64,000 nucleotides of DNA from Terriglobia bacterium (lineage in GTDB: Bacteria > Acidobacteriota > Terriglobia > UBA7540), in the NCBI GenBank assembly GCA_049508935.1, contig JBELAJ010000001.1, positions 6,002 to 70,001 of the forward strand, given 5' to 3'. The notes under the pieces were generated by a model. It saw only the letters and a program-made list of their open reading frames with translations, was not told the DNA's origin and ran no database searches. The position numbers were made by a program, and so were the translations under genes. Shown in pieces: positions 24 through 26,141 of the stretch (its first letter is position 1; the number at the start of each line of letters is the position of its first letter).

Positions 24-1421
24 ATGCTACGGAAAAACATCGACTCGAAATACTGGAATGAATGCAGCAAGCACGACCGCCTCTGGAGAGAGCCAGGGCG
101 GACGTTGATTTCCTTCCTGGCTTTCATCGCTTTATTCCCTTTTGCGCTGGCGGCTCAGGATACAGGGTCGACGAGCACTTGCCAGGCCTGTGTCTTTGGC
201 GGCGGAATACAGATGCCGCTCTTATTCGCGGGAGAGTCGGGGCCAGTCAATCTGCTTAGCCTCAGCGCGGGGATATCAGCCGTTTATGACGATAACGTAC
301 TTGACTCAAGTTCTCCACGCGCCAGTGACGAGGCGTTGTCATTCGATTCCCATGTCGGCATTAGGAGGCGCTCTAAGCGCTCAGTAGTCAGTTTCGACTA
401 CACCCCATTTTTTATGTTATACCGCCAAATTAGTCAATTCGACCGCGTCAATCATTCCGCCGGTATGAACTTTTCGTATAAGTTGACACGGCGCGTTTCG
501 CTGGCATTGCACGACAATGTGAGTTATCAGAACGGAGTGTACCCATCTCTCACCAATCAAGAGATTCTAGCCGGGCCCGCCGCACCGATTAGTCTGGATC
601 AGATTGTTGTCCCGTACACCACGAGGACTCTAGTAAACACGCCTGGTCTAGATCTGGCGTTTGCAAAGACCCGGCGCACCTCGATGACTTTGACCGGCGT
701 CTACAGCCAGCTCAAATTTGGGCACAAAGTAGCTGGTGAGCCGTTGTATAACAGTAGCGGATTGAATGGCGGCCTGACGATTCAATACAGTTTGACTAGG
801 CGTACAAGCTTGGGCATGTCACTGAGTCATCAAGATACCACGTACCAGGGAGGCCAGGTTTTTGGCAACCGGCTACGCTCCCAAATAGAAAGCGCATTTC
901 TTACCCTGGCATCCACCCTTTCTCCGAGTGTTTCCGTAAGTGTTTCTGGTGGGCCGCAATATGTCCGCACAATAGACGCAACCTCTGCGGCGGGCCGCAT
1001 CCCTGCTATTCTTCTAGCCGCCGGAGGCGGAGGTATTAGGAAAGAGGTTCGAAAGACTGCGCTGGAGGCAACGTTCTATAGGTCCTCAAATACCAGCGGA
1101 GGCGTGTACACAACCGCGATCAGCACCACTGCAAGTTTCTCCGTCCGACGTCGGTTGATGGGCCGCTGGGAAGTAGGGTCGCAGGTCGGGCTCGCACGAG
1201 ATGACACCTCAATTTTTCAGCTTAAGAATGGGAGGACCGATGGGCTGTCCGCCGGAGCCGACATCACTCGCCCCGTCGGTCGTGGCTCTGTGTTCCACAT
1301 TTCTTATTTCAATATGCACCAAATGAGCAGCGGCGCCTTGCCTATATCATATAACTTTAGCCGCGATCAGGTTTCTGTGGGCTTCGACTACCAGTTTAAA
1401 GCTCTTCCCTTAGGGCGGTAA
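24..1421 (+). CDS. putative outer-membrane beta-barrel protein associated with the polysaccharide locus
   Basis: 465-aa ORF. Signal-like hydrophobic segment LISFLAFIALFPFALAAQD, a YDDNV motif, S/T/G/Y/R-rich stretches of alternating polarity, and a terminal aromatic strand VGFDYQF. No enzyme motifs. An in-frame stop at 15-17 bounds the start. Confidence 0.5.
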   Translation: MLRKNIDSKYWNECSKHDRLWREPGRTLISFLAFIALFPFALAAQDTGSTSTCQACVFGGGIQMPLLFAGESGPVNLLSLSAGISAVYDDNVLDSSSPRASDEALSFDSHVGIRRRSKRSVVSFDYTPFFMLYRQISQFDRVNHSAGMNFSYKLTRRVSLALHDNVSYQNGVYPSLTNQEILAGPAAPISLDQIVVPYTTRTLVNTPGLDLAFAKTRRTSMTLTGVYSQLKFGHKVAGEPLYNSSGLNGGLTIQYSLTRRTSLGMSLSHQDTTYQGGQVFGNRLRSQIESAFLTLASTLSPSVSVSVSGGPQYVRTIDATSAAGRIPAILLAAGGGGIRKEVRKTALEATFYRSSNTSGGVYTTAISTTASFSVRRRLMGRWEVGSQVGLARDDTSIFQLKNGRTDGLSAGADITRPVGRGSVFHISYFNMHQMSSGALPISYNFSRDQVSVGFDYQFKALPLGR

Positions 1422-1491: not shown

Positions 1492-2679
1492 ATGATCAGG
1501 ACAATTCTTGCTCGAGCAAGACCCGTTAAAGTAAGGCAAGACCGCAGGCCAGGCTGGGAGTCCACCCGGATACACATAGGCAGCGCCAAAGTCGACACTT
1601 CGACGCTTGTGCCTGAGGACATGTTCCGGAGAGTACTCTCCTTGGAAAGAAAGAGGAGTGCTCGCTCTGGCCAACGTTTTGTCCTCATCCTACTGAATCT
1701 GGGCGCCGCTCTCCGAGGTGAAGGACAAGACGCCGGCCTTGACTCCATTACCAAGGCGCTCGTGCTCGCAACTCGGGAGACGGACTTGCTGGGCTGGTAC
1801 AAGGATGGCGAACAAGTGGGTGCCATTTGTACAGAAGTTGGGTCAGGGAGTGTGAATTCCATTTTAAGCACCTTGGATTCAAGGATTCGGACCGCCCTGC
1901 GAAGCCGCCTTAGTTTGCAGCAGATGAACGCCATCCGTATTTCTTTTCATGTGTTTCCGGACGACTTAGACCTGGAGAATGGGGGCCGTCCAGCAGACAA
2001 AAGTCTCTATCCGGACTTGTATCCTGAGGACATCTCTCAAAAGTCCTCGCAAGCGATCAAGAGAACTATCGATATCATCGGGGGCGTCCTCGCTCTGGCT
2101 CTCCTTTCTCCCTTCCTGATCATCATTGCGGTCGCAATCAAGTTGACCTCGAAAGGACCTATCCTCTTCAAACAACAAAGGTTGGGCCAGTATGGAACTC
2201 GGTTTACCTTCCTGAAGTTCAGATCGATGTACTACCAAAGCGATCCTAGGATTCACCAGAATTACATCAAGAAGTTCATTTCAGGGAAGCATGAGTCGGC
2301 GCACTCGGGTGGTCGCCAGGACATATTCAAGATCCAGGACGATCCACGCGTAACCCCCGTGGGACGATTCCTGCGAAGAACCAGCTTGGACGAGCTGCCG
2401 CAATTCTTGAATGTGCTTACGGGCGAAATGTCTCTGGTGGGACCGCGGCCCCCTATTCCCTATGAAGTGGAAAGGTACAACCTATGGCACCGGCGCCGCT
2501 TCTTGGAGATAAAGCCCGGGATCACAGGCTTGTGGCAAGTCGAAGGCAGAAGCCGAACGAAGTTTGATGAAATGGTTCGTCTGGATCTCAAATACGCCAA
2601 AACATGGTCTCCCTGGCTGGATATTAAGATTCTCTTGAGAACGCCATCCGCGGTCTTGCGAGGAGACGGTGCCTACTAA
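1492..2679 (+). CDS. polyprenyl-phosphate glycosyl-1-phosphate transferase (bacterial sugar transferase, WbaP/EpsB-like) with an N-terminal degenerate GGDEF-like domain
   Basis: TM helix [22 protein letters not shown] is followed by [46 protein letters not shown] and PGITGLWQV, the classic sugar-transferase signature. The N-terminal ~180 aa are soluble; see finding. Confidence 0.9.
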
Positions 2680-2755: not shown

Positions 2756-3760
2756 ATGATTCGGGTTGGCGTTATCGGATACGGTTACTGGGGCCCCAAT
2801 GTGGTCAGAAATCTGCAAGGCCTGGATTCGGCCGCCGTGGTGGTGGCCATCTGCGATCGCAGCCAAGCGGCACAAAAACGCGCCCAGCGTGCCTTCCCTT
2901 GTCTGGAGGTCATCTCCGACGCAAACGAAATCTTGCGTTCACCCGATGTTGATGCAGTCGCCGTCATCACCCCCGTTTGGACACATTTCGAACTCGCCAA
3001 GGCAGCCCTGGAAAACGGGAAGCACGTGTTCGTCGAGAAACCGTTCACTGCTACGTCGGCCCAAGCTGAGACACTGATCGAGTTGGCTCAGCAACGGAAC
3101 CTCAAGATCATGGTCGACCACACCTTCCTGTTCACGGGCACGGTAAAAAAGATTCGCCAACTCATCGACCAAGATGAGCTCGGCGATCTCTACTACTATG
3201 ATTCCATGAGGGTCAATTTGGGCCTGTTCCAACACGACATTGATGTGATCTGGGACCTTGCCCCTCATGACCTGTCCATCATGGACTATCTCATCGGCCA
3301 GGAACCTGAAGCCATCGTAGCCACCGGCGAGTCACACTTGAACGGCCACGCCGACGTGGCTTTCATAACGATCTACTTCCCGCACCGAACGATCGCCCAC
3401 ATCAACGTGAACTGGCTCTCTCCGGTGAAGGTCAGGACGACGCTCATCGGCGGTGAGAAGAAGATGCTGGTGTGGAATGACTTGGAAGCCCACGAAAAAC
3501 TCAAAGTCTACGATCGCGGAGTGCAGATAGCGAATGGCGAAGGCCTTTACGAATTATTGGTCAGCTACCGCTCGGGAGACATGTGGGTGCCCAAGATCGA
3601 GCAGACTGAAGCACTGAAAGCTGAGTTGGGATACTTTCTGGATTGCATTGAGAAAAACGAAACGCCCTTCAATGACGGCGTAGCCGGGCTGCGGGTCGTC
3701 AAGATGTTGGAAGCCGCCGGACAATCACTTAAGCTGAGAGGGGAGACTGTTCTTGTATGA
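2756..3760 (+). CDS. Gfo/Idh/MocA-family NAD-dependent sugar oxidoreductase (WbpB/WlbA-like UDP-sugar 3-dehydrogenase)
   Basis: N-terminal Rossmann motif IRVGVIGYGYWG and an EKP motif (VFVEKPF). RBS AGAGAGGA lies upstream. The gene sits immediately before an LbH acetyltransferase and a DegT aminotransferase. Confidence 0.8.
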   Translation: MIRVGVIGYGYWGPNVVRNLQGLDSAAVVVAICDRSQAAQKRAQRAFPCLEVISDANEILRSPDVDAVAVITPVWTHFELAKAALENGKHVFVEKPFTATSAQAETLIELAQQRNLKIMVDHTFLFTGTVKKIRQLIDQDELGDLYYYDSMRVNLGLFQHDIDVIWDLAPHDLSIMDYLIGQEPEAIVATGESHLNGHADVAFITIYFPHRTIAHINVNWLSPVKVRTTLIGGEKKMLVWNDLEAHEKLKVYDRGVQIANGEGLYELLVSYRSGDMWVPKIEQTEALKAELGYFLDCIEKNETPFNDGVAGLRVVKMLEAAGQSLKLRGETVLV

Positions 3761-4263
3761 ACGATCACGTTTGCATAGCGCCGGACGTGAGGTTGGGGAA
3801 GAACGTCAAGCTTTCAAAATTCATCAATCTCTACGGCTGTGAAATTGGAGATGAGACAAAAATTGGGGCGTTTGTGGAAGTTCAGAAGGGCGCCACGATT
3901 GGGAAAAGATGCAAAATCTCGAGCCACACCTTTATCTGCGAAGGTGTGACTGTAGAAGATAATGTATTTATAGGCCACAATGTGACATTTATCAACGATA
4001 CCTACCCGCGCGCCACCACGCCAGACGGGGGATTACAAACCGAGAACGACTGGAAAGTCGAGACCACGCTGGTTAAAAAAGGTGCGTCGATTGGATCGGG
4101 AACCACAGTTCTTTCCAATGTCACTATCGGAGAGAACGCCATCGTGGGAGCGGGTAGCGTGGTTACAAGAGATGTACCCGCTAACACCATTGTGGCGGGG
4201 GCGCCGGCCAAAGTACTGCGCCTTCTGGAGCCAACGGTCATGGAGGTCTCAGTCGGTGAATAG
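3757..4263 (+). CDS. hexapeptide-repeat (LbH) N-acetyltransferase, WbpD/WlbB-like
   Basis: Left-handed beta-helix repeats (IGDETKIGAFVEVQKGATIGKRCKISSHTFI, IGSGTTVLSNVTIGENAIVGAGSVV). ATGA overlap with the upstream gene. Confidence 0.8.
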   Translation: MNDHVCIAPDVRLGKNVKLSKFINLYGCEIGDETKIGAFVEVQKGATIGKRCKISSHTFICEGVTVEDNVFIGHNVTFINDTYPRATTPDGGLQTENDWKVETTLVKKGASIGSGTTVLSNVTIGENAIVGAGSVVTRDVPANTIVAGAPAKVLRLLEPTVMEVSVGE

Positions 4264-5485
4264 CGATAGCATCCCTTTTCTGGATCTTGTTACGCCACAT
4301 CAACAGTTAAAGGACGAGTTGCTCAAAGTTGTCGAGCAGGCCCTGGAAACGGCTGGCTTCATCGGCGGTCCAATGGTGGCCGGTTTTGAGCAGGAATTCA
4401 GCCGCTTCTGCGGCACTCCGTATTGTGTAGGGGTCGGGAGCGGCACGGACGCCGTACGGTTCGCACTCATTGCCGCGGGCGTTAAACCCGGCGATGTCGT
4501 GGTCACCGTGCCGAACACCTTTATCGCCACGGCCGAAGCCATAACGCAGGCAGGCGCCACGCCCGACTTCGTCGACGTCGATGAGCGCACGTACAACATG
4601 GACCCTGAACAACTTCTCAAATACCTTCAGGTTCAGTGCCGCGTGGACGGAAACACCGGCCGCGTTTACAACCGCCGGCTCGGGAAACCGGTCACGGCGG
4701 TCGTGCCCGTCCACCTCTACGGTCAACCCGCGGATATGGATCGCATCGCGGACATCGCCGATCGCTTCGGCTTGTTGGTGGTGGAAGACGCCTGCCAGGC
4801 GCACGGGGCGGAGTACTATTCGCGGAAAGAAATGGCCTGGAAAAAGGCCGGGACGATGGGTAAGGCGGCCGCTTTCAGCTTTTATCCCGGCAAGAACCTG
4901 GGAGCCTGCGGTGAGGCCGGGGCGGTCACGACCAGCGACGACGAGATTGCCCGCAAGGTTCGAATGCTCCGCGATCACGGCCAATCGCGAAAATACTTTC
5001 ACGACCTCGAGGGTTACAACGGCAGGCTGGATTCGATTCAAGCTGGGATCTTGCAAGTGAAACTCCGGCACCTTGCCGAGTGGAACGAGAAACGGCGCGC
5101 GGTGGCAGCTCGCTATCGGGAATTGTTCGAGGCCGCCGGTGTGGAGAAATTGATTCTCCCCTTCGAGCCGAGTTGGGCAAGAAGCGTCTACCACTTGTAT
5201 GTCGTCCGGGTATCGAACCGGGACGCGTTGCTCAGCCGCCTCGCCGCTGTCGGCGTCGGTACCGGCATCCACTATCCGATTCCTCTCCACCGTCAGAAGG
5301 CCTACCGGTCGTTCGGCTACGAGACGGTTGTTCTCTCGAACGCCGAGGGGCTTGCTTCTGAAATCCTATCGCTTCCGATGTTTCCTAATCTCACGTTGCA
5401 GCAGCAAGAGCGCGTGGTTAATGAAATCAGGAAATTTACACTCGCAGGAGAGGCCCTTGAAGCGCAAAACGTGTTTACCGTCTGA
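4256..5485 (+). CDS. DegT/DnrJ/EryC1/StrS-family PLP-dependent sugar aminotransferase (WbpE/WlbC-like)
   Basis: IPFLDL...FEQEF..FCG, GSGTDA, VPNTFIATAEAI, VPVHLYG and SFYPGKNLGA (PLP-lysine region). The ORF-track start at 4082 lies inside the previous gene, so I trimmed to the in-frame GTG at 4256 (VNSDSIPFLD). Confidence 0.85.
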   Translation: MNSDSIPFLDLVTPHQQLKDELLKVVEQALETAGFIGGPMVAGFEQEFSRFCGTPYCVGVGSGTDAVRFALIAAGVKPGDVVVTVPNTFIATAEAITQAGATPDFVDVDERTYNMDPEQLLKYLQVQCRVDGNTGRVYNRRLGKPVTAVVPVHLYGQPADMDRIADIADRFGLLVVEDACQAHGAEYYSRKEMAWKKAGTMGKAAAFSFYPGKNLGACGEAGAVTTSDDEIARKVRMLRDHGQSRKYFHDLEGYNGRLDSIQAGILQVKLRHLAEWNEKRRAVAARYRELFEAAGVEKLILPFEPSWARSVYHLYVVRVSNRDALLSRLAAVGVGTGIHYPIPLHRQKAYRSFGYETVVLSNAEGLASEILSLPMFPNLTLQQQERVVNEIRKFTLAGEALEAQNVFTV

Positions 5486-6819
5486 TGGCTTGTAGTAACT
5501 TCTCAAACGAGCGGGCGACGCGTAACTTTGCATCGCGTGCCCCTCGCCACTTGGATCAAGAGCAAGCCATGGTGAACAATGCAAAAGAGCAGCCGGAATT
5601 TCGAGGCACGACGAAACAGCGACCCACGGCAGTTTGTATCATCGTCGAGAACTTGCCCGTTCCTCTAGATCGACGTGTGTGGCGTGAAGCAGCCGCGCTT
5701 CGCGATGCCGGATACTCCGTTTCCGTCATCTGTCCCAAAGGTAAGGGTTCTTGCACAGCGAGTCACGAGGTTCTGGAAGGAATCCACATCTATCGCCATG
5801 CTATGTGGGAACCTTCCAGCGCCTTGGGGTATCTCCTGGAATATGCGTTGGCGTTGGTTGGCGAGTTTTATCTCAGCTTGAAGGTGTTCGCCCTCACGAG
5901 GTTTCGGATTCTGCAAGGTTGTAACCCTCCCGACACCATCTTCCTGATTGGCCTGTTCTTCAAGCTTTTCGGCGTCCGCTATATTTTCGACCACCACGAT
6001 CTGAGCCCCGAATTATTTGAGGTCAAGTTCGGCAGGAAGCGGGGTCTGCTTCCTGCCATGACAAGGGCGGCCGAGCTATGCTCATTCAAGGTTGCCGAAG
6101 TCGCTATCGCCTGCAACGAATCCTTCCGGGAAGTCGCCGTCACGCGAGGGGGGAAAAAACCGGAACGGGTATTTGTAGTACGAAATTGTCCCGACCTGAC
6201 AACATTCCGCCGTCGATCTCCTCAGCCTGAGACCAGGCTGCGGGAATCGTTTCAGGTGGCGTACGTGGGTTTCATGGCCAAGCAGGATGGCTTGCCCCTC
6301 TTGGTTGAATCTATTGAACACATGGTCAAAAACCAGAATCGGCAGGATACCCACTTCCTGCTTGTGGGCGGAGGGAGTGAGCTTCTGGAGTTGCGAGGCA
6401 TGGTAGCCGCAAAGGAGCTCAACTCGTATGTGACTTTTACGGGCCAGGTATCTCACGAGGACGTGGCCGCGTTCCTCGCTGATTCAGACGTGGGGGTAGC
6501 GCCGGACCCCAAGAACCCCTTGAACGACAGCTCGACCATGATCAAGATTCTTGAGTATATGGCGTTTGGGTTGCCGGTGGTGCTTTTCGATTTGAAGGAA
6601 GGACGGCGTGTAGCGGGCCCCGCCGCCTTGTATGCGCTCCCCAATGATCCTGTTGACTTCGCCAACCAGATCAACAGATTGCTTGATAGTCCGGAACTCC
6701 GCCGGCGGCTGGGGGAGTGCGGTCGCGCGCGGATTGAAGAGGGTTTGAACTGGGAAACCGAAAAGCAGGGGCTGCTTCGCGCCTATCGCATGGCGTTGGA
6801 ACCTGACCATGCTTCATGA
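5485..6819 (+). CDS. glycosyltransferase family 4 (GT-B, group 1)
   Basis: VCIIVENLPVPLDRRVWREAAALRDAGYSVSVICPKG N-domain. C-domain has GGGSE..L, FTGQV and MIKILEYMAFGLPVV. TGATG overlap with the aminotransferase. An alternative start is the ATG at 5566. Confidence 0.85.
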   Translation: MACSNFSNERATRNFASRAPRHLDQEQAMVNNAKEQPEFRGTTKQRPTAVCIIVENLPVPLDRRVWREAAALRDAGYSVSVICPKGKGSCTASHEVLEGIHIYRHAMWEPSSALGYLLEYALALVGEFYLSLKVFALTRFRILQGCNPPDTIFLIGLFFKLFGVRYIFDHHDLSPELFEVKFGRKRGLLPAMTRAAELCSFKVAEVAIACNESFREVAVTRGGKKPERVFVVRNCPDLTTFRRRSPQPETRLRESFQVAYVGFMAKQDGLPLLVESIEHMVKNQNRQDTHFLLVGGGSELLELRGMVAAKELNSYVTFTGQVSHEDVAAFLADSDVGVAPDPKNPLNDSSTMIKILEYMAFGLPVVLFDLKEGRRVAGPAALYALPNDPVDFANQINRLLDSPELRRRLGECGRARIEEGLNWETEKQGLLRAYRMALEPDHAS

Positions 6820-9086
6820 CGTGGTGGAACGGGTCAGTGCGCGAGCAAGCCGATGGAACCCGTCCTGCTCCGATCGCGACGCTCTCAGAAAGCGTCTGCA
6901 TTGATATGATGGCTTGGACTGCTAACGCGGAATCCCCGATCTCGCTGCCTATTTGGCGCGGAGGCTTTGAAGCCGTGGGAGCAGCTCGTCTCCGCAAGCT
7001 GGCAACCCGCCTGGGGGGCGCAGCAGGCGCCGTCCTTTTCTCGATGTTGTTGCCTTCCCTGCGATGCCAGGCGGCCGATATCGTTTTCGTTCGTTCGGCC
7101 GTAAGCTCGCTCGCCCCACAACAAGAACTCGAAATAGCCACCAGTTTTTATGGATTGGGGCTCCAGGTGGTTACGGTCACCGCCGATGAAGACAATCATG
7201 TCCTCGCCAGGGCCGTCGAGGGGAACGACACCCTCGGGGTAGCCGTCGCGGCTGACGCTCTCGCTCTGGTGGATGAAAAGGCTCTGCTGCAAGCCATGTC
7301 GCGGAAATCCGGGGCTGGTTTGCCTTTGCTGATCCTGGGAGTGACACCCGAGATTGACCAGACACTCTTGAGAGCCTGGTCTGGCGGCGCGGCGGCCGGC
7401 TGCAGATGGCAAAGGAACCCCGCTCACCCGCACTATGTTGTGCATCGCGCCGCCGGCCTCACCGGCCAACTTGCCGAACTCGAATTGGCGATGCCGAGTG
7501 AGGATACATCTTATTTTGTCTTGGGTGACCACCTCAAGGGTCAAATAATCTCCGAGGTGCGGTACGCGCAGCAAGCTCTTCCGGTGTTCATCGCGACGGC
7601 CCTCGACCACCACAATCTCTTCCTGGTTAGCCAAACGCCGTCTCCCACCAACGGGGGCACGGGAACCGCTGACAGTGTGACGACAAGGTTCGCGACCATC
7701 GCCCCAGCCATGATGTTCATCAGGTATTGCAGCGGGGAACGGGGATGGCACGCTCTCCATCACTACGCAAACCTCACCATTGACGATGCCTGGTTGACAG
7801 AGCCCTATGGAAATCTCAATTATAGAGGCCTTCTGGGTGAGATGGAGCGGCACAACTTTCACACCACTATCGCTTTCATCCCATGGAATTACGACCGCAG
7901 CGAACCGGAGGTTGCCGGGCTGGTTCGCAGCCGCCCGGAGAGATTCTCAATCTGCGTTCACGGAGACAATCACGATCACCAGGAGTTTTCGGACCTTCGA
8001 AGTAAGCCGCTGCCGGTCCAAGTGGCAGCGCTTCGAGAAGCCTTGGCCAGAATGGACAGATTCCAGACACTGACACGAATTCCCTACGATAAGGTGATGG
8101 TATTCCCGCACAGCATCGGTTCGGAGAGAATATTGGAAGCTCTCAAAACCTATAACTACCTGGCCACCGTCAACTCCTCGAATGTTCCGATGGACGTTTT
8201 CCAGCCCCCAGTGTTCTGGGAAGCCTTACGGTCCTTCACGCTCTCGTGGGGAGACTTCCCCAGCATCGCCCGTTACCCGGTGGAAGCGGGAGCAGAAGGC
8301 CCGACAGACCTCATCGCGATCAATGAGTTCCTCGATAACCCCCTGCTCTTTTATGGGCATCATGATCTTTTTGAGAACGGTATCAGTGCCTTCGACGCCC
8401 AGGCAGACCAAGTCAACAAATTGGAGCCGGATACGCAGTGGAGCAGCCTGGGCGACATCGTAAGGCACCTTTATAGGGTCAGGCTAAGGGATGACTCCAA
8501 CCACGACGTGCTCGCCTTTTCGAGCAACCTTTCTCTCGAAAATACTTCCGGCCACGATTCGATCTTTTATGTGCGGAAGCAGGAGACCGGTTCGCCCCTC
8601 ATAACTTCAGTCAGCGTGGACGGCCGGCCTAGCGAGTATCAGTTGCACGATGGCTATCTGGATTTGAGCGTAGAGATTCCCGCGGGCAAGACTCGTAACG
8701 TGGTCGTGCTATACGAAAACGACGGGGGGTTGATGCCGGCCAGCGCCTCCAAGCATTCTCTTCGCGTTTACCTGCTGCGCCGCATTTCGGATTTCCGCGA
8801 CATAACCCTGTCAAAATATGCCGCCGGACGAGCCCTGACCCACCTTTACTACTCGACCCAACCAACGAGCCTACTCATTTTCGGCGCATTGGCAATGATC
8901 TTGGCCTGTGGTTGCGGGGGTTGGGGCCTGCGCCTGTTCCTGAGGAGAAGAATTCGGCTCGATCGAGCCCGGACACGTCGCACCGTGCCATCGAATCGCC
9001 AGAACGACGGGCCAGCGCCCGATTCCCATCCTGCGTGGCCAGAATGCGAGCACACTCCGGTGAGACCAACGCGCCCGGGTGGGTAG
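6816..9086 (+). CDS. large membrane-anchored protein with a polysaccharide-deacetylase-like (DUF2334/CE4-like) central domain
   Basis: 756 aa. Signal/anchor AAGAVLFSMLLPSLRCQAAD. Central NLTIDDAWLTEPYGNLNYRGLL..HNFHTTIAFIPWNYD..FSICVHGDNHDHQEF. C-terminal TM LLIFGALAMILACGCGGWGLRLFL followed by a basic, Pro-rich tail. ATGA overlap with the GT4 gene. Confidence 0.45.
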   Translation: MTWWNGSVREQADGTRPAPIATLSESVCIDMMAWTANAESPISLPIWRGGFEAVGAARLRKLATRLGGAAGAVLFSMLLPSLRCQAADIVFVRSAVSSLAPQQELEIATSFYGLGLQVVTVTADEDNHVLARAVEGNDTLGVAVAADALALVDEKALLQAMSRKSGAGLPLLILGVTPEIDQTLLRAWSGGAAAGCRWQRNPAHPHYVVHRAAGLTGQLAELELAMPSEDTSYFVLGDHLKGQIISEVRYAQQALPVFIATALDHHNLFLVSQTPSPTNGGTGTADSVTTRFATIAPAMMFIRYCSGERGWHALHHYANLTIDDAWLTEPYGNLNYRGLLGEMERHNFHTTIAFIPWNYDRSEPEVAGLVRSRPERFSICVHGDNHDHQEFSDLRSKPLPVQVAALREALARMDRFQTLTRIPYDKVMVFPHSIGSERILEALKTYNYLATVNSSNVPMDVFQPPVFWEALRSFTLSWGDFPSIARYPVEAGAEGPTDLIAINEFLDNPLLFYGHHDLFENGISAFDAQADQVNKLEPDTQWSSLGDIVRHLYRVRLRDDSNHDVLAFSSNLSLENTSGHDSIFYVRKQETGSPLITSVSVDGRPSEYQLHDGYLDLSVEIPAGKTRNVVVLYENDGGLMPASASKHSLRVYLLRRISDFRDITLSKYAAGRALTHLYYSTQPTSLLIFGALAMILACGCGGWGLRLFLRRRIRLDRARTRRTVPSNRQNDGPAPDSHPAWPECEHTPVRPTRPGG

Positions 9087-9771: not shown

Positions 9772-10773
9772 TTGACCATGAGATTGCTTGTTGCAGGTGG
9801 TGCAGGGTACATAGGGTCGGTGCTGATACCCAAACTGCTCGATCGTGGCTACAAAGTAGACGTGGTCGACCTGTTTTGGTTTGGCAACCATCTGCCACGG
9901 GATGTTGGGATCCTTCACAAGGACATTTTCCAACTCTCGACGGAGGACTTGGAGCCCTACGATCAAGTCATCTTTTTGGCTGGGCTGTCCAACGACCCTA
10001 TGGCGGAGTTTTCGCCGAGCAAGAACTTCATCTTCAACGCCGCTGCTCCGGCCTATCTGGCCTATACGGCCAAGAATGCTAAAGTGAAGAGGTACATTTA
10101 CGCCTGCTCCTGCTCGGTTTATGGGTACACGGAAAACGAACTCTACGACGAGACGCGCCCTGTCTCCTCCACTTATCCCTACGGAATTTCCAAACTGCAA
10201 GGCGAGCAAGCGGCGATGCAGTTGGCGGACGGAGAATTCTCGGTTATCTCGTTGCGCAAAGGCACGGTTTCTGGGTACAGCCCCCGCATGCGCTTCGACC
10301 TTATCATTAACACGATGTTTAAGTTCGCGATGAAAGAACACACTATCACCATCAACAATCCCTCCATTTGGCGGCCCATTCTCAGCATCGACGACGCCGC
10401 CACCGCGTACATCCGGGCTATTGAAGCGGATCAGAAAATCTCTGGCATTTTTAACATTGCGTCAGGCAACTACACGGTCGGGGAAGTCGGCGACTTGGTG
10501 AAGGCCACGATTGAAGATCGCCTGGGAGAACGGCTGAACCTTTGCATCAAACACATCCAGGATTTTCGCAACTACAAAGTGAGTGTGGAGAAGGCCAAGA
10601 ATGTGCTCAGTTTCCATCCGGCGGGTGATGTGAAATCCATCGTGGGCCATCTGACTGACAACATGGAAAAGTGCAGCGACTGGGACAACCCGCTCTATTC
10701 CAACATCGTTTCGTTCAAGCAACTCGAGAATGGAATCGAAACCTACGCGATGGGGAAGGTGCCGGCGCGATGA
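9772..10773 (+). CDS. NAD-dependent epimerase/dehydratase (extended SDR)
   Basis: MRLLVAGGAGYIGSVL glycine motif and a YxxxK region (YPYGISKLQGE). Confidence 0.8.
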   Translation: MTMRLLVAGGAGYIGSVLIPKLLDRGYKVDVVDLFWFGNHLPRDVGILHKDIFQLSTEDLEPYDQVIFLAGLSNDPMAEFSPSKNFIFNAAAPAYLAYTAKNAKVKRYIYACSCSVYGYTENELYDETRPVSSTYPYGISKLQGEQAAMQLADGEFSVISLRKGTVSGYSPRMRFDLIINTMFKFAMKEHTITINNPSIWRPILSIDDAATAYIRAIEADQKISGIFNIASGNYTVGEVGDLVKATIEDRLGERLNLCIKHIQDFRNYKVSVEKAKNVLSFHPAGDVKSIVGHLTDNMEKCSDWDNPLYSNIVSFKQLENGIETYAMGKVPAR

Positions 10774-11654
10774 AAGTGGTCGTAGTGGGCAGCAATGGCC
10801 AATTGGGGAGCGACGTCGTGCGCGCTTTCGCGGACAATGGGGATGAAGTCCTGCCGCTGACGCACGCCGACATCGAGATCGCAGATGGAGAGTCTGTCAC
10901 GAATAAATTGCGCGCGCTGGAGCCCAGCCTCGTGGTGAATACCGCAGCGATGCACCACGTGGAGAACTGTGAATTGCAACCTGAGAGAGCATTCGCCGTC
11001 AATGCCTTAGGTGCGAGAAACCTCGCCCGGGCAGCGCGGGAAATCGGCGCCACGCTCGTCCATGTCAGCACGGATTACGTCTTTGACGGGTCTAAGGTCA
11101 GCCCCTATGACGAGGGTGATCCGCCCCGGCCCTTGAGCGTCTACGGTAACACGAAACTCGCCGGAGAGTACTTTGTGCGCGCTACACTCGACCAGCATTT
11201 TGTGCTGCGCACCTCGGCGATTTACGGGAAAAGCCACTGTCGGGCCAAGAGCGGACTGAACTTCATCCAACTGATGCTCAAGCTGGCGAAAGAGCGGGGC
11301 GAAGTCCGCGTGGTCGACAGCGAATTCGTGACCCCTACAGCCACCCCCGATCTGGCGCGGCAAATAGTTGCGCTGAGCCGCTGCGAGAATTACGGGTTAT
11401 ACCACGCCACCGCCGAAGGAGCCTGCTCCTGGTTCGAATTCGCCCGCGAGATCTTTGCCTTGACCAACACCAAAGTTACTCTGAAGGTTGCGGGGCCGGA
11501 TGAATTTCCCGCCAAAGTGCCGAGACCGAAGTATTCGGTACTGGAAAACCGCGGACTCAAGCGTTTGGGCATCAATACCTTCGCGCCTTGGCAGGAGGGT
11601 CTGCGCGACTACCTCGGCGTTTCGCCGTCGCATACGGCGGCGGTAACCAGATGA
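10770..11654 (+). CDS. rfbD: dTDP-4-dehydrorhamnose reductase-like (RmlD family)
   Basis: MKVVVVGSNGQLGSD, VVNTAAMHHVENCELQPERAFAVNA, LVHVSTDYVFDG and SVYGNTKLAGE. ATGA overlap with the upstream stop; trimmed from the ORF-track start at 10671. Confidence 0.8.
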   Translation: MKVVVVGSNGQLGSDVVRAFADNGDEVLPLTHADIEIADGESVTNKLRALEPSLVVNTAAMHHVENCELQPERAFAVNALGARNLARAAREIGATLVHVSTDYVFDGSKVSPYDEGDPPRPLSVYGNTKLAGEYFVRATLDQHFVLRTSAIYGKSHCRAKSGLNFIQLMLKLAKERGEVRVVDSEFVTPTATPDLARQIVALSRCENYGLYHATAEGACSWFEFAREIFALTNTKVTLKVAGPDEFPAKVPRPKYSVLENRGLKRLGINTFAPWQEGLRDYLGVSPSHTAAVTR

Positions 11655-12514
11655 TGCAATACGTAATCATCACGCCCGTGCGGGATGAAGAAGAGCATGT
11701 GCAAGCAACCATCGAATCCATCACCGCCCAAACTGTGCGACCGGCGGAATGGGTGATAGTCGACGACGGCTCCACCGACCGAACCGGCGCCATCACCGAT
11801 CGCTCTTCAGCCCAGTTTCCCTGGATCCGCGTCATCCACAGACCGAACCGAGGTTTTCGTAAGGCGGGCGGCGGCGTCGTGGATGCTTTTAATGAGGGAT
11901 ACAATTCCCTGCGCTGCAGCGACTGGGATTTCTTAGTCAAACTCGACGGAGATCTCAGCTTTTCCCCCGATTACTTTGAACGGTGCTTCGAGAAATTCCG
12001 GACGCAGCCTGATTTGGGGATTGGGGGCGGAGAAATCTGGCACAATTCGGGCGGCATGCTCAAACTCGAGGCCGGTCCCAGATTCCACGTACGCGGGGCT
12101 ACCAAGATTTACAGAAGGGCTTGCTGGGAAGCGCTAGGCGGGTTAATGCCGGCAGCCGGATGGGACACCATCGACGAGGTTAAAGCTAACATGCTGGGCT
12201 GGAAGACCCGCAGCTTTGAGGATCTCCGGCTCATCCATCATCGCCTCACGGGAGCGGCGGACGGCCTCCTGCACGACCGCATGAAGTACGGTTTGGTTTG
12301 CTTTACCTGCGGGTACCATCCTCTCTTTGTTCTCGCCCGTTGCGTCTATAGGGTGACTCGAAAGCCGTATGTGGTTGGCTCACTCGCGATGCTTTTTGGC
12401 TATCTGAAAGGTTATTTTACCGATACGCCGCAGGTGAATGACGAACGGGTGGTTCGTTACCTGCGGACACAACAATTGAAACGTCTCTTCGGCCTAAGAA
12501 CCGTTTGGCGGTAA
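11651..12514 (+). CDS. glycosyltransferase family 2
   Basis: YVIITPVRDEEEHV..ITAQTVRPAEWVIVDDGSTDRTG and a KLDGD motif. ATGA overlap with rfbD. Confidence 0.8.
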   Translation: MMQYVIITPVRDEEEHVQATIESITAQTVRPAEWVIVDDGSTDRTGAITDRSSAQFPWIRVIHRPNRGFRKAGGGVVDAFNEGYNSLRCSDWDFLVKLDGDLSFSPDYFERCFEKFRTQPDLGIGGGEIWHNSGGMLKLEAGPRFHVRGATKIYRRACWEALGGLMPAAGWDTIDEVKANMLGWKTRSFEDLRLIHHRLTGAADGLLHDRMKYGLVCFTCGYHPLFVLARCVYRVTRKPYVVGSLAMLFGYLKGYFTDTPQVNDERVVRYLRTQQLKRLFGLRTVWR

Positions 12515-12547
12515 CAACCAGACCTTCCCGGCCTCAGGCATACCTTT

Positions 12548-14518
12548 ATGTGCGGAATCTGCGGCAAGCTTAATTTCGAGCAGAACTCGAGCGTCAGCCC
12601 TGCCCTGGTTCGCGAGATGTTGGACACCATTCGTCATCGGGGTCCCGATGATGAAGGGGTCTACTCGGCGGGGCAGGTCGGCTTGGGGCACCGCAGGCTC
12701 TCGATTATAGACCTGAACACGGGGCATCAACCCCTGTCAAATGAGGATGGCACGGTTTGGATCGTCTTCAACGGGGAAATTTACAATTACCAGGAATTGC
12801 GCCCATGGCTCTTGAACAAGGGTCACAGGTTCGCAACCCAGACCGACACCGAAGTCATTGTCCATTTGTATGAGGAATTGGGGCCCGAGTGCCTGCAGAA
12901 ACTGCGCGGCATGTTTGCCTTTGCCATATGGGATGAGAAATCCAAGACTCTATTCCTGGCAAGAGACCGGGTGGGAATCAAGCCTCTCTACTATTGCCTG
13001 ACGGAGAGATCGCTGGTCTTCGCGTCTGAGATCAAGGCGATCCTGGCGGATCCCAATGTCGATCGAGCCATTTCCCCCCAGATCATCGACAGATTCCTTA
13101 CTTTCTATTATTTGCCGGGGGAAGAAACGCTTTTCAAAGGCATCTCAAAGCTTGCTCCGGGATCCTACCTGGTCGTAAAGAATGGTCGTGCGGAAATTCG
13201 CCAGTACTGGGACCTTAGCTTCTCTAAGCCCGGCGAAAAGCCGAGCCCCATAGAGGCAGAGGGACAATTAGTTGAATTGTTGGCCGAGACCGTTCGACAG
13301 CATATGATCGCAGACGTTCCGGTCGGCGTTTTGTTAAGCGGTGGAGTGGATTCTACGGCCGTGCTCAGCTTCGCTGTGGAACGGACAGACAAGAAGGTCA
13401 GCACCTATACCGTGGGCTTCTCTGACCCTGGGTTCGCCGACGAGAGACCCTATGCCAAGTTAGCGGCTGACACCTTCCACACCCAGCACCATGACATGAC
13501 CATATCGGCGGCCGACTTTGCCGCTTTTATGCCGCGATATGTGTGGCACATGGAAGAACCGGTTTGTGAGCCACCCGCCATCGCCTTGTATTATGTTTCG
13601 AAGCTGGCGAGGCAGTACGTCAAGGTACTTCTTTCAGGGGAAGGGGGCGATGAGGCTTTTGCGGGTTACAGCAACTATCGCAACATTCTCTGGCTCGAGC
13701 GAGCGAAAAGTGGCCTGTATCCGCTGGTAGGGCTGCTTGCACGAGGACTTTCGCTGACCAACTCGGTGTTCCAATCGTCGCGCATCGCTAAATATGTACC
13801 TTTGATGACGGCGATGTTCCCTGACTACTACTACAGCCGCACTTCAAATCCTTACCGCTCCGTCCGCAACGGACTGGGCGATTTGTACTCCAGTGATTTC
13901 GCCCGGTCAATTGACCCGGAGTACAGTCTTGAGCCGGTACGTCGACTGCAGGCGCATGTGCGAGGCCAAAATACCCTCGATGCAATGCTTTACATCGACA
14001 CCAAGACTTGGCTGCCGGACGACCTACTGATCAAAGCCGACAAGATGACCATGGCCAATTCGCTTGAGCTCCGGGTGCCCCTGCTTGATCACAAAGTTCT
14101 TGAGTTCGCGGCTGCCTTACTCCCGAACCTCAAGGTTCGCCGATTCACCACCAAATATCTCGCCAAGAGAGCATTGGGACGCCGGGTCCCCAAGCCCATT
14201 CTTGATCGTCGTAAGGCTGGCTTTCCCGTTCCCTACGAGTCATGGCTCCGGAACGACCTGCGAAACTGGGTTCAGGAAGTGTTGTTCGACCCGACGACTA
14301 CAAGCCGGGGCTATTTCGCCGTTCCCGCTCTGCGCAAGTTGCTGGCCCGCGACGAGTCTATAGGGGGATTTTCCAAGGAGATTTTCTCGTTGGTTACGCT
14401 CGAGCTCTGGCACAGGACTTTTCTCGGCCAGAAACAGGTTCTGCCAACAGCGTCTCTGCAGCCGGCATCGGCTAGCGCGCAACAGCCGCGTCAGCCAGAG
14501 CACTCTCAGCGTGGATAA
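12548..14518 (+). CDS. asparagine synthase (glutamine-hydrolysing)-family amidotransferase, AsnB/WbpS-like
   Basis: Begins MCGI (catalytic Cys2). HRGPDDEG, HRRLSIIDL, FNGEIYNY, and the PP-loop LLSGGVDS. Confidence 0.9.
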   Translation: MCGICGKLNFEQNSSVSPALVREMLDTIRHRGPDDEGVYSAGQVGLGHRRLSIIDLNTGHQPLSNEDGTVWIVFNGEIYNYQELRPWLLNKGHRFATQTDTEVIVHLYEELGPECLQKLRGMFAFAIWDEKSKTLFLARDRVGIKPLYYCLTERSLVFASEIKAILADPNVDRAISPQIIDRFLTFYYLPGEETLFKGISKLAPGSYLVVKNGRAEIRQYWDLSFSKPGEKPSPIEAEGQLVELLAETVRQHMIADVPVGVLLSGGVDSTAVLSFAVERTDKKVSTYTVGFSDPGFADERPYAKLAADTFHTQHHDMTISAADFAAFMPRYVWHMEEPVCEPPAIALYYVSKLARQYVKVLLSGEGGDEAFAGYSNYRNILWLERAKSGLYPLVGLLARGLSLTNSVFQSSRIAKYVPLMTAMFPDYYYSRTSNPYRSVRNGLGDLYSSDFARSIDPEYSLEPVRRLQAHVRGQNTLDAMLYIDTKTWLPDDLLIKADKMTMANSLELRVPLLDHKVLEFAAALLPNLKVRRFTTKYLAKRALGRRVPKPILDRRKAGFPVPYESWLRNDLRNWVQEVLFDPTTTSRGYFAVPALRKLLARDESIGGFSKEIFSLVTLELWHRTFLGQKQVLPTASLQPASASAQQPRQPEHSQRG

Positions 14519-14523
14519 CGAGT

Positions 14524-15789
14524 TTGTTTACCAACAACCAACAGAGTAGCCGCAGTCGACAGAGCGCGCTCAATCTGGCCGCGAAGACGCTCTGGCGCAT
14601 GCCAGGCCGTTTCGGGATTGCGCGTCTCTTCGGTCCTTGTTACTCTTTGCGGTGCGTTGTCTTTCATGACATTTCAGCGACGGAGTCGCCGTTTACCAAG
14701 GGAATGCGGGTGAGCATCACGCCCGCGGAGTTCGGGGCGGCGCTGAAATTTCTCACCCGATACTACACTCCTGTCCGCTTCGAGGACGTTCTGGCTGCTT
14801 CTGGAGGCCGTAGTCTGCCGCCAAGACCGCTGCTCGTGACCTTCGACGACGGCTATGCGTCGATGATGGAGTGGGCCGCACCGCTGTGCCGCAAGTATGG
14901 CGTGCCTGCCATCTTTTTCCTCAATGCAGCGTTTCTCGATAATGAGAGACTAGCGCCGGACAATCTCATTTGTTACGCGGCCAACGTTCTGGGATTGGAA
15001 GCCATAAACGCTGCCGCGCGCAGCGTAGGGGACGACGAAGTCCCCAAGCTAGAGTCTCTGGCTGAGGTCTTCTCGCGTTTCCTCCCCGCGATTTCGTTGG
15101 CCGACAGGCAAGTCTTTCTCGACGCCTTGGGTCATTTGGGAAGATTCGATGAGCGTCGATTAGCACGGGAAGCGTGCTTATACCTGACTCGAAAACAGGT
15201 TTGCGAGTTGGCAGCTTCGGATTTCGAGATCGGGAGCCACAGTTATTCCCATGTCCGTTGCCGGTCGTTAGCAAGCGCGGATTTTGAGGAGGAAATTGAC
15301 AGAAACAAGGCAGAGCTGGAGGCTCTATCTAGGAAGAAGGTACGGTCATTCAGCTTGCCCTACGGTTCCTCTGCGGACCTCTCAAGTGACTTGCAGCGAA
15401 AGCTTCAGGCTTCAGGGCACGAAGTGGTCTTCCTAAGCGAGAGCGTTGCCAACCCGTGCGCGATGGGATGCCTCCGTTTTGACCGAGTAAGCATCCAAGC
15501 CAGCGGAAACGACGCTTTGTTCTTTGAGATCGAGGTTTTGCCGCGCCTTCGCGCCGTCAGGAATCGTCTTTTCCGGGACCCTGGCGCCGTTCGGATGGCC
15601 CGTAACGAGGCTTCACGGGCTGGGTTGGGAACGCGGCGCGGGGAAAATGAAGTCGCAGCGCTTGACGAGATGAAGCATATGTATGATCATTCAAATTGCA
15701 GAGATAAAGTGACAGCCAGAGAGGTGGGCGGAAATTCCGGGGATTCCCGGCCTGATGCGCTAAGGTCTTCCGGTAAAAGACTCCAATGA
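14524..15789 (+). CDS. polysaccharide deacetylase (NodB/CE4 family)
   Basis: LLVTFDDGYASMMEWAAPLCRKYGVPAIFFLN, and GSHSYSHV as the His-containing motif. The start is uncertain (TTG at 14524 or ATG at 14599). A low-complexity C-terminal tail overlaps the ACP start (ATGA). Confidence 0.8.
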   Translation: MFTNNQQSSRSRQSALNLAAKTLWRMPGRFGIARLFGPCYSLRCVVFHDISATESPFTKGMRVSITPAEFGAALKFLTRYYTPVRFEDVLAASGGRSLPPRPLLVTFDDGYASMMEWAAPLCRKYGVPAIFFLNAAFLDNERLAPDNLICYAANVLGLEAINAAARSVGDDEVPKLESLAEVFSRFLPAISLADRQVFLDALGHLGRFDERRLAREACLYLTRKQVCELAASDFEIGSHSYSHVRCRSLASADFEEEIDRNKAELEALSRKKVRSFSLPYGSSADLSSDLQRKLQASGHEVVFLSESVANPCAMGCLRFDRVSIQASGNDALFFEIEVLPRLRAVRNRLFRDPGAVRMARNEASRAGLGTRRGENEVAALDEMKHMYDHSNCRDKVTAREVGGNSGDSRPDALRSSGKRLQ

Positions 15790-24776: not shown

Positions 24777-26141
24777 GTGACTCAACACTCTCCATCTGCA
24801 TTCGGTGGCGGCTCGTCTACCACGATACTGCACCCGTTGGTTGCGGTGGGGATGCTGATCGCCATCGTGCTGATCTTCTCGCTTCGGCGCCAGAGGGCGA
24901 TCACACCCTTTCTCTTGGCTTATTTCACAATCCCCGTCCCACAGGTGTTGGTGCTGGGTGGTATTCACTTTACGATGCATCAAATCCTGATCTTCACCGT
25001 ACTGGCGCGGATGGTGGCCTTCCGCGGGGCAGAGGGGAGGTTCGCGGGGGGGTTCAACGCCCTCGACAGGGTGGCCGTGCTCTGGGCGTTGGCGGCTTTC
25101 ATCATCCCTTGTGTCCAGTGGATGGAGGTACAGGCGGTCATCAAATTACTGGGGGACCTGGTGATTAACCTGGGCGGCTACCTGGCGGTGAGATTTCTGA
25201 TTCCTGACCTCGAGACACTCCGGCGCGCGGTGAAGGTGATGGCGCTGATTTGCCTTTTCCAGGGTGTCTGCATGATGAGTGAGCTGTTTACCTATGAAAA
25301 CGTGTTCTATTTCGCCGGTGGGCAGTGGCCCTCCGCTAGGAGCCACAATATTCGTGCGGAAGGAGCGATGGGGGGTCTTTATGGCGGCGCGTTGGCTGGG
25401 GTTTTGATTCCATTATTCATCTGGCTTTGGACGGAACGTAAGTCCCGATTGGCAGCTTGCGCCGGGATTGCAGGGGCTACGGCCATGGGGTTCGCCTCCC
25501 ACGCCAGCACGGCTTGGATGGCTTATGGTGGAAGTATTTTGGGGCTGTGCTTCTGGCCGCTCCGCAAACAGATGCGTCTTCTGCGCTGGGGAATTGTGGC
25601 CGCACTGATAGGATTACACTTGGTGATGCATGGGCCCGTCTGGTCTCTGATTGAACATATTGACGTCACCGGTGGCTCATCCAGTTACCATCGGTATATG
25701 CTCGTGGATAACACCATACGGCATTTCAGCCAATGGTGGCTGCTCGGATATCGCTATCCCGCAGCCTGGGGCTTTGACATGTGGGATCTCTGCAACCAGT
25801 TTGTCTCCGCCGCTGTGACTGGCGGCCTCTTGACCCTGGTTCTGTTCATCATGATTTACATTCGGGGCTTCGGTGCGATCGGCAGAGCGAGGAAACGTGT
25901 CGAGGGCGACCGCCACCAAGAATGGTTCTTTTGGTGCTTGAGTTCCGTCCTATTTGCCAATGTGGTAGCGTCTTTCGGAATCAACTATTTGGTCCACCTG
26001 ATAGTGTGCTTCTCCTGCGTGTTGGCTTGCGTATCCGCTGCTATCATTGGAGTTGCGCCGCCCTTGGAGGTAAAAATCGCATCTGTTGATGATTTTGACA
26101 TGCCAGCCGCCCCGTACCTCGAAATTTTGCATGAAAATTAG
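24777..26141 (+). CDS. O-antigen polymerase/ligase-family (Wzy-like) polytopic membrane protein
   Basis: About 10-12 hydrophobic helices, with a loop and helix SHASTAWMAYGGSILGL resembling the O-antigen ligase domain. GTG start is uncertain. Confidence 0.55.
   Translation: MTQHSPSAFGGGSSTTILHPLVAVGMLIAIVLIFSLRRQRAITPFLLAYFTIPVPQVLVLGGIHFTMHQILIFTVLARMVAFRGAEGRFAGGFNALDRVAVLWALAAFIIPCVQWMEVQAVIKLLGDLVINLGGYLAVRFLIPDLETLRRAVKVMALICLFQGVCMMSELFTYENVFYFAGGQWPSARSHNIRAEGAMGGLYGGALAGVLIPLFIWLWTERKSRLAACAGIAGATAMGFASHASTAWMAYGGSILGLCFWPLRKQMRLLRWGIVAALIGLHLVMHGPVWSLIEHIDVTGGSSSYHRYMLVDNTIRHFSQWWLLGYRYPAAWGFDMWDLCNQFVSAAVTGGLLTLVLFIMIYIRGFGAIGRARKRVEGDRHQEWFFWCLSSVLFANVVASFGINYLVHLIVCFSCVLACVSAAIIGVAPPLEVKIASVDDFDMPAAPYLEILHEN

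Follow-up and report, generated by a model that had tools for sequence, protein, structure and literature searches.

The subject of this analysis is a gene at positions 1492 to 2679 (forward strand) of a 64-kb stretch of DNA from a Terriglobia bacterium (the whole stretch is referred to as the window), which encodes a protein of 395 residues with a GGDEF-derived domain in its N-terminal half (the N-domain) and the catalytic core of a monotopic phosphoglycosyl transferase (PGT, monoPGT) in its C-terminal half. That this is a regulatory GGDEF-derived domain fused to an active PGT we regard as highly probable. For the ligand of the N-domain, bis-(3'-5')-cyclic dimeric guanosine monophosphate (c-di-GMP) is the candidate, with the chances for and against it about evenly balanced, and the same balance holds for the prediction that the N-domain is a c-di-GMP receptor of the PelD/PssE/PopA kind that gates the PGT. 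A wider reading is put forward tentatively, as possible but falling somewhat short of an even chance: a phylum-wide Acidobacteriota family, present in at least 590 species genomes, would carry a cryptic, minimal GGDEF-derived receptor in which c-di-GMP, by cross-linking the inhibitory site (I-site) of one protomer to arginines of helix α0 of another, assembles the active PGT dimer, and this would be the first second-messenger gating of the step that commits undecaprenyl phosphate (Und-P) in a Wzx/Wzy-type or ATP-binding cassette (ABC)-type pathway.

For conservation analysis, the window protein was combined with the best 80 loci of a scan of one genome per species, giving 81 genomes at 38-81% identity; counts out of 81 refer to this set. 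The parts of the gene that bear on the N-domain are the following, with codons in brackets where they are given and with model confidence as the predicted local distance difference test (pLDDT).

1492 to 2679, forward strand: complete coding sequence of the fused N-domain/PGT protein, ATG start, 395 residues plus stop.
1492 to 1599, forward strand: residues 1-36, basic N-terminal tail, predicted to be disordered (pLDDT <50 for residues 1-34 in both models).
1612 to 1965, forward strand: residues 41-158, predicted truncated and catalytically degenerate GGDEF-fold domain, α0-β1-α1-α2-β2-β3-α3-β4.
1645 to 1668, forward strand: α0 motif E52-R53-K54-R55-S56-A57-R58-S59; E52, R53, R55 and R58 invariant, K54 in 80/81.
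1696 to 1704, forward strand: N69-L70-G71 in place of the metal-binding D-x-D (PleD D327/D329), placed by hhalign and by HMMER against SiaD and GcbC.
1774 to 1785, forward strand: R95-E96-T97-D98, RxxD at the I-site position in the α2-β2 turn (cgg gag acg gac).
1792 to 1800, forward strand: G101-W102-Y103, family-specific β2 motif, invariant in 81/81; W102 replaces the canonical arginine, PleD R366.
1801 to 1815, forward strand: K104-D-G-E-Q108, degenerate active site (A-site) at the GG[DE]EF position in the β2-β3 hairpin (aag gat ggc gaa caa).
1966 to 2058, forward strand: residues 159-189, low-confidence linker into the PGT core with a conserved LYPDL (pLDDT 40-55).

Residues 1-190 searched alone gave no Pfam or NCBIfam match even at E<=10 and no phmmer match in the PDB. 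A homologue search returned 60 relatives, and a 40-sequence alignment was built, in which E52, R53, K54, R55, S59, L65, R95, T97, D98, G101, W102, E115 and F152 are invariant. When the 40 homologues were scanned singly, 14 matched the Pfam GGDEF model PF00990, with P0035 reaching 24.6 bits against a gathering threshold of 23.8; the hidden Markov model (HMM) check that the first-pass annotation had proposed thus failed for residues 1-190 of the window protein and succeeded at the level of the family. In a profile made from the untrimmed alignment A1, PGT matches dominated and GGDEF appeared only at E 0.21. A1 was replaced for the family profile by the trimmed alignment A2, and LYPDL is part of the consensus in both. 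The two best PDB matches of the A2 profile were diguanylate cyclases, SiaD (7e6g, E 0.0037) and GcbC (5euh, E 0.0052). A comparison of A2 with a small PleD/WspR profile in hhalign gave an E of 5e-4 and a probability of 31%, as against 1.7-7% when WspR or PleD was used as a single sequence; the PleD/WspR profile is shallow because the PleD homologue search yielded only close orthologues (65-88% identity).

The fold was modelled with AlphaFold2 (AF2) using the family alignment, which gave block pLDDT values of 88-95 over most of residues 41-158, falling to ~71 at residues 71-80 and ~79 at 151-158. The elements of the model are α0 (42-59), β1 (63-69), a short helix (72-75), α2 (79-93), β2 (99-103), β3 (108-113), α3 (121-139), a second short helix (142-147) and β4 (149-155), and a full-length AF2 run reproduced the core of the N-domain. 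A Foldseek search of the PDB returned 46 matches at E<=1e-3, and the top 50 were all GGDEF domains (E 2e-5 to 1.5e-3, probability 1.00), among them those of an Idiomarina phytochrome cyclase, DosC, SiaD, GcbC, WspR, a T. maritima diguanylate cyclase, YfiN, DgcB and MorA. Judged by model and alignments together, residues ~41-158 form a domain of the GGDEF fold. The disordered linker follows directly after β4 (residue 155), the last element of the model, which lacks α4 and β5, the part that carries ADxALYxAKxxGRN; the hhalign alignment stops at 'TISIGVS' of PleD, which matches this loss. The first-pass annotation had not seen the truncation.

The register of the motifs was established with HMMER and hhalign, in which RETD is aligned to REYD of SiaD, RPAD of GcbC, R242SSD245 of WspR and R359AID362 of PleD. 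All four alignments agree on the register, and the WspR and PleD GGDEF query sequences, checked against the PDB chains, are essentially identical to them. KDGEQ is aligned to GGEEF of WspR and PleD, and HMMER sets the family consensus 'ykdds' on 'YGGEEF'. The reading frame, the positions of RETD and KDGEQ and their translation had been given exactly in the first-pass annotation, and its claim of a five-residue spacing between the RxxD and the signature was confirmed, the gap being exactly LLGWY; the replacement of GG[DE]EF by KDGEQ, which it had also proposed, is upheld by the WspR and PleD alignments. Its further observation that the D-x-D-x-FK-x-ND segment is missing is accounted for by the substitution of N69 and G71 for D327 and D329 of PleD together with a six-residue deletion after N69-L70-G71, which removes PleD F330-N335 (FFKKIN, including K332 and N335), the GTP-binding segment. 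Position 71 is Gly in 74/81, and the position equivalent to PleD D344 is not conserved. On the alignments and the predicted model, the N-domain is without every catalytic feature, namely GG[DE]EF, the DxD, the K/N segment that binds guanosine triphosphate (GTP), and α4/β5. The defining features of a diguanylate cyclase were each looked for and found absent, so the N-domain is not an active enzyme of this kind. Sensing of GTP at the A-site, as in some GGDEF-EAL proteins, was considered and rejected, the site being deleted.

Sixteen positions are invariant in all 81 genomes (F45, E52, R53, R55, R58, F63, L65, R95, T97, D98, G101, W102, Y103, T114, H153 and P156), and the five positions equivalent to GG[DE]EF vary freely. 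The survey of RETD among orthologues that the first-pass annotation had called for therefore came out in its favour, with R95, T97 and D98 in 81/81, as did the structure prediction with its exclusively GGDEF-type top matches; the layout that it had recognised by eye is borne out by the predicted secondary structure, the alignments to four GGDEF domains and the invariance of these three residues. Neither a fold other than GGDEF nor a loss of RETD, two outcomes that it had named as speaking against it, was found. Many active cyclases lack an RxxD, which is dispensable for the fold; since it is nevertheless invariant in a domain that is catalytically dead, ligand binding best explains its conservation. 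In the hhalign register, R55 of the α0 helix corresponds to PleD R313 and WspR R195, and R58 corresponds to WspR R198. PleD R313 and WspR R198 we take to be secondary I-site arginines, through which two GGDEF domains can be cross-linked by a dimer of c-di-GMP.

The family extends well beyond the conservation set. The one-genome-per-species scan found at least 590 loci that encode it, of which the best 80 are all from Acidobacteriota, carried by Terriglobia, Acidobacteriaceae, Bryobacterales, Ca. Sulfotelmatobacter, Terracidiphilus and the cultured Silvibacterium bohemicum S15 (L075). When 1.84 billion cluster representatives were searched exhaustively with the profile, 2,581 clusters (at 50% identity) were obtained with E<=1e-3 and 1,624 with E<=1e-10. 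Among the 150 best results of this search, 141 proteins were newly returned; in these further representatives the motif is RETD in 102 cases and RDTD in 26, every motif match retains the R and the D, and no recurring pentapeptide was found at the signature position. N-domain and PGT core lie in a single open reading frame (ORF) in 79 of the 80 loci, the exception appearing to be frameshifted; a survey of the fusion had been suggested in the first-pass annotation.

The N-domain also occurs in other arrangements. Stand-alone paralogues of 149-176 residues exist in which the motif is kept. In one polysaccharide locus (L081) such a paralogue (8001-8450) lies ~3 kb upstream of the fused PGT (11489-12622), and in a second (L082) a stand-alone paralogue (10001-10531) is accompanied by a 395-residue Bac_transf protein (13452-14639) in the same gene order as in L081. 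The order in both is a NusG-like gene, a sigma54 response regulator, a Wza-like exporter, two unknowns, an AAA ATPase, one unknown, the stand-alone domain, an ATP-grasp gene, an aspartokinase-ACT gene and the Bac_transf PGT, for which the N-domain is shown only in L081. A 905-residue protein (P0110) appears to join aspartokinase and PGT. Three tandem forms (P0061, P0062, P0063) have two GGDEF-like domains before the PGT core, each with R-x-[TS]-D-x-x-G-W-Y, which is consistent with N-domains working in pairs.

The C-terminal half contains the following features, of which the roles of the Asp-Glu dyad, the PRP motif and the Ser-Pro residues are presumed from PglC and WbaP.

2059 to 2658, forward strand: residues 190-389, catalytic core of a monotopic PGT (Bac_transf; PF02397, E 3.3e-67, profile positions 1-178 of 179).
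2074 to 2139, forward strand: residues 195-216, putative re-entrant membrane helix with a Ser206-Pro207 break, read from the sequence and the WbaP alignment and helical in the full-length model; the role of S206-P207 as the helix break is presumed from PglC.
2389 to 2394, forward strand: D300-E301 of SLDELPQ, putative catalytic Asp-Glu dyad of monoPGTs (gac gag), in a 10-residue block identical in the WbaP alignment.
2443 to 2451, forward strand: P318-R319-P320, PRP motif of monoPGTs, with 'lvgprp' identical in the WbaP alignment.

Residues 185-395 were aligned end to end with the catalytic core of the solved WbaP structures (E 4e-51). TIGR03025 (EPS_sugtrans) was matched with 296.7 bits, slightly over its cutoff of 295.55, and the NCBIfam models of WbaP, WcaJ and EpsZ were matched below cutoff, through their C-terminal ~200 positions only. 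Neither the four-helix membrane bundle nor the PF13727 domain of unknown function (DUF) of large monoPGTs was found in Pfam and NCBIfam scans of the window protein, which thus consists of a small monoPGT core extended at its N-terminus by a soluble part and is not a large PGT of the WbaP type. By its sequence the C-terminal half, which the first-pass annotation had called a priming PGT, is an intact monotopic PGT that retains dyad, PRP motif and re-entrant helix. The N-domain contains no signal peptide or transmembrane segment, and given the presumed topology of monotopic PGTs it should lie in the cytoplasm together with the PGT core.

Degenerate GGDEF receptors that use the I-site are known to switch on the Pel and cellulose machinery post-translationally (PMC8461298), and PssE is an I-site receptor for Listeria exopolysaccharide (PMC4125290). 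Among PGTs, WbaP is an obligate dimer whose dimerisation is functionally important (PMC10942596), and the activity of EpsZ is under post-translational control, with activation proposed to proceed via dimerisation induced by phosphorylated EpsW (EpsW~P) (PMC12802240); for this reason we consider ligand-driven dimerisation the most economical switch. In the proposed mechanism, c-di-GMP, probably as an intercalated dimer, would bind R95 and D98 and, by analogy with PleD and WspR, might bridge this I-site to R55 and R58 of α0 on a second protomer. The bridge would drive or stabilise the PGT dimer, or else release an autoinhibitory contact, and thereby turn on transfer to Und-P, such that c-di-GMP would set the amount of Und-P and uridine diphosphate (UDP)-sugar committed to polymer. 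Stand-alone and tandem copies of the N-domain may act as modulators.

Several observations weigh against this mechanism or limit what can be drawn from the models. The window protein itself has no significant match to PF00990 (it remains below the gathering threshold), and with an hhalign probability of only 31% the homology has to be argued from several moderate lines together with the fold search. Ordinary GGDEF domains commonly carry the α0 arginines too, which makes these weak evidence. The third primary I-site arginine (PleD R390, PelD R402) is aligned to a non-basic residue, T127, a position that is Thr in 63/81 and Ala in 13/81 and lies in α3, where alignment confidence is low; the nearest conserved basic residue is R131 (R or K in 81/81), four residues or one helical turn further along the same helix. 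The motif R-[ED]-T-D-x-x-G-W-Y is invariant, which is stricter than an I-site needs, and it could equally mark a protein interface or the site of another ligand. No diguanylate cyclase, phosphodiesterase or PilZ gene and no c-di-GMP riboswitch was found in the window or in the 80 related loci: the ORFs scanned in the window have no GGDEF, EAL or PilZ Pfam match, the window has no Rfam match, c-di-GMP riboswitches included, and no ORF of >=60 residues in the 80 loci contains GG[DE]EF. The full-length model gave no interdomain geometry (predicted template modelling score, pTM, of 0.44), and its PGT half is poor because most of the homologues returned were truncated. That control takes the form of activation and not inhibition is guessed from analogous systems, and we hold it with less than even confidence.

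The main rival, which we judge unlikely, is that the dead GGDEF domain serves as a protein-protein module without nucleotide and sets the oligomeric state or recruits partners, its surfaces R-[ED]-T-D-x-x-G-W-Y, ERKRxxRS and FHxxP making contact with the PGT core, a second protomer, the stand-alone paralogue or other proteins of the cluster. PGT dimerisation matters functionally in WbaP and EpsZ (PMC10942596, PMC12802240), and the strictness of the motif beyond that of a nucleotide I-site (T97, G101, W102, Y103 and H153 are all found in 81/81) fits an interface. Stand-alone paralogues only a few genes away from a fused PGT, together with the tandem forms, suggest domain-domain pairing, and no equivalent of R390 was found. 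What a nucleotide-free module leaves unexplained is the survival of exactly the R and D of the I-site, in the canonical register, while the A-site decayed. Pairing and bridging by c-di-GMP are, moreover, compatible, since the domains of PleD and WspR are brought into contact by the ligand itself.

The invariant Thr, Trp and Tyr beside the RxxD and the lack of an R390-type arginine can also be taken to suggest a remodelled pocket, and hence an N-domain that senses a different nucleotide, be it 3'3'-cyclic GMP-AMP (3'3'-cGAMP) or another cyclic dinucleotide, the linear dinucleotide pGpG, the guanosine penta- and tetraphosphates (p)ppGpp, or uridine monophosphate (UMP) or a UDP-sugar as feedback signal in the manner of the WbaP DUF. 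To our knowledge, all characterised RxxD I-sites in GGDEF folds bind c-di-GMP, and those of PelD and BcsE are documented examples (PMC8461298). The accessory domain of WbaP, proposed to be a UMP sensor (PMC10942596), offers a precedent for nucleotide feedback on PGTs, but nothing points to any specific alternative here, and GTP is unlikely, as the A-site, which binds it in some degenerate GGDEF domains, is deleted. A different nucleotide we consider distinctly improbable. The truncation of the N-domain and the lack of a Pfam match of its own in the window protein would suit an evolutionary relic without regulatory function, or one needed for folding or stability only, with RETD a coincidence. 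Such a relic would hardly show 16 invariant positions across 81 genomes at identities down to 38%, persist in the genomes of at least 590 species and in 2,581 clusters, or be duplicated as stand-alone and tandem copies with the motif kept; the invariance, retention and duplication indicate strong purifying selection on specific surface residues. The relic reading is already disfavoured, and we give it hardly any weight.

Direct control of polysaccharide synthesis by c-di-GMP is known from synthase-dependent systems, namely cellulose, alginate, Pel and poly-N-acetylglucosamine (PMC8461298), and post-translational control of PGT-initiated pathways was found only recently, in EpsW~P/EpsZ, the WbaP DUF and the phosphorylation of CapM (PMC12802240, PMC10942596). 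If the prediction of a PGT-fused c-di-GMP receptor is true, it would show the rationing of scarce Und-P and UDP-sugars by a lifestyle signal and would provide a system for allosteric control of a monotopic PGT within one polypeptide. Current annotation overlooks the N-domain, naming such proteins 'sugar transferase' only, and a family HMM would annotate it in thousands of Acidobacteriota sequences. The phylum is a dominant one in soil, rich in exopolysaccharide and with almost no characterised signalling biology, and Silvibacterium bohemicum S15, as a cultured carrier, is an experimental entry point.

Public collections contain the identical 395-residue protein, labelled only 'exopolysaccharide biosynthesis polyprenyl glycosylphosphotransferase' or 'sugar transferase [Terriglobia bacterium]'. 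Gene calls of 345 residues that begin at TTG codon 51 exist among the public entries in the same 90% cluster. A start at this codon, which would exclude the region 1492-1644, was rejected, as it would cut α0 and remove half of it. The start at 1492 is supported by E42 (76/81) and F45 (81/81), both of which lie upstream of codon 51 and are conserved, and by the N-terminal MIRGI..., which is common to close homologues and kept among these only.

The whole 64-kb window is a co-directional glycan-biosynthesis supercluster on the forward strand. The genes next to the fused PGT are listed below; the WbpB/WbpD/WbpE naming of the downstream trio is inferred.

24 to 1421, forward strand: upstream gene, 465 residues, probable outer-membrane protein (weak match to TIGR03016, PEP-CTERM-associated outer-membrane protein, E 5e-6, below cutoff).
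2756 to 3760, forward strand: WbpB-like dehydrogenase (Pfam GFO_IDH_MocA).
3757 to 4263, forward strand: WbpD-like hexapeptide acetyltransferase (Pfam Hexapep).
~4262 to 5485, forward strand: WbpE-like aminotransferase (Pfam DegT_DnrJ_EryC1).

A homologue of the 465-residue gene is found upstream in 57 of the 80 loci, directly so in L001-L011. The WbpB/D/E-like cassette lies directly 3' of the fused PGT in 74-78 of the 80 loci (~7100-9900 in L001-L080). The trio probably makes a 2,3-diacetamido UDP-sugar, which would be the substrate of the PGT, and its conservation behind the fused gene suggests that the priming residue is a conserved 2,3-diacetamido sugar. The mechanically called ORF of the DegT aminotransferase begins at a GTG at 4082 and overlaps the acetyltransferase gene by ~180 nucleotides; its true start is probably near 4262, since the Pfam match begins at residue 76.

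Further along, a Wzx-type flippase (31724-33211) is encoded in the window alongside a Wzm/Wzt ABC exporter pair (41798-42583, 44729-46036), with a choice-of-anchor D domain protein (42596-44644) between the exporter genes. There are many genes for glycosyltransferases of families GT2 and GT4, RmlC/D-like genes, an AsnB-type amidotransferase (12548), a deacetylase (14524), an FkbH-like gene (16161), a FemAB-like gene (18503), a C-methyltransferase (37512), a pyruvyl transferase (46837) and a GMC oxidoreductase (48362), and several genes resemble XrtA/PEP-CTERM-associated families with scores below cutoff. An 835-residue membrane protein (50127-52634) has a spermidine-synthase-like domain, unusual for a glycan cluster. 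No Pfam or NCBIfam match was obtained for the ORFs at 6816-9086 (756 residues, with a C-terminal hydrophobic segment and a Pro/Arg-rich tail), 21400-23013 (537 residues) and 24777-26141 (454 residues), and no Pfam match for that at 53860-55617 (585 residues).

Among characterised systems, PelD of Pseudomonas aeruginosa, PssE of Listeria and YdaK of Bacillus share with the window protein a dead GGDEF fold and an RxxD five residues before a degenerate signature; they, too, are associated with the membrane, have their genes within a polysaccharide cluster and presumably act post-translationally (PMC8461298, PMC4125290). PelD differs in that its GGDEF domain is full-length, uses R402 as third contact and is accompanied by a GAF domain and four transmembrane helices; it is a protein of its own, whose part in a synthase-dependent pathway is to recruit the glycosyltransferase PelF. 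In the window protein, by contrast, the domain is truncated (without α4/β5), N-terminal, devoid of a clear third arginine and covalently fused to the initiating Und-P PGT of a Wzx- or ABC-type pathway, and its binding of c-di-GMP is a prediction. The active, product-inhibited cyclases PleD, WspR, GcbC and SiaD have in common with it the fold, the register of the RxxD and the α0 arginines (PleD R313, WspR R198), whereas the window N-domain has no GG[DE]EF, no DxD and no α4/β5, has lost the equivalents of K332 and N335 and carries W102 in place of the canonical arginine; it cannot make c-di-GMP. BcsE, with its GIL/degenerate GGDEF domain in cellulose secretion, resembles it as a case of a cryptic domain overlooked by standard models, and its I-site-like RxxD binds c-di-GMP and raises polysaccharide output (PMC8461298, PMC8892547); BcsE is, however, a soluble multi-domain partner of a processive synthase, unfused and unrelated in sequence to the N-domain family.

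On the side of the transferases, WbaP, EpsZ (activated by EpsW~P) and CapM (activated by phosphorylation) have the same catalytic core, and their first committed step is controlled by a partner or an accessory domain, with dimerisation as the proposed switch in WbaP and EpsZ (PMC10942596, PMC12802240). Compared with WbaP, the window protein has neither four-helix bundle nor PF13727 DUF, and its accessory domain has the GGDEF fold; compared with both WbaP and EpsZ, the proposed input is a second messenger and not UMP or a phosphorylated response regulator. In the bifunctional monoPGT (Bi-PGT) fusions known to us the partners of the PGT are sugar-modifying enzymes or glycosyltransferases. As a category (PMC10942596), Bi-PGTs resemble the window protein in that a soluble domain is added to one end of a small PGT core. 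The first-pass annotation knew of no characterised example of the present architecture, and full-text literature searches agree, in that no GGDEF-PGT fusion was found described, although the monoPGT survey of O'Toole et al. 2021, which lay outside the search, might list one. The N-domain would constitute a new class of PGT accessory domain, beside the WbaP DUF, the EpsW/EpsZ pair and the phosphorylation of CapM.

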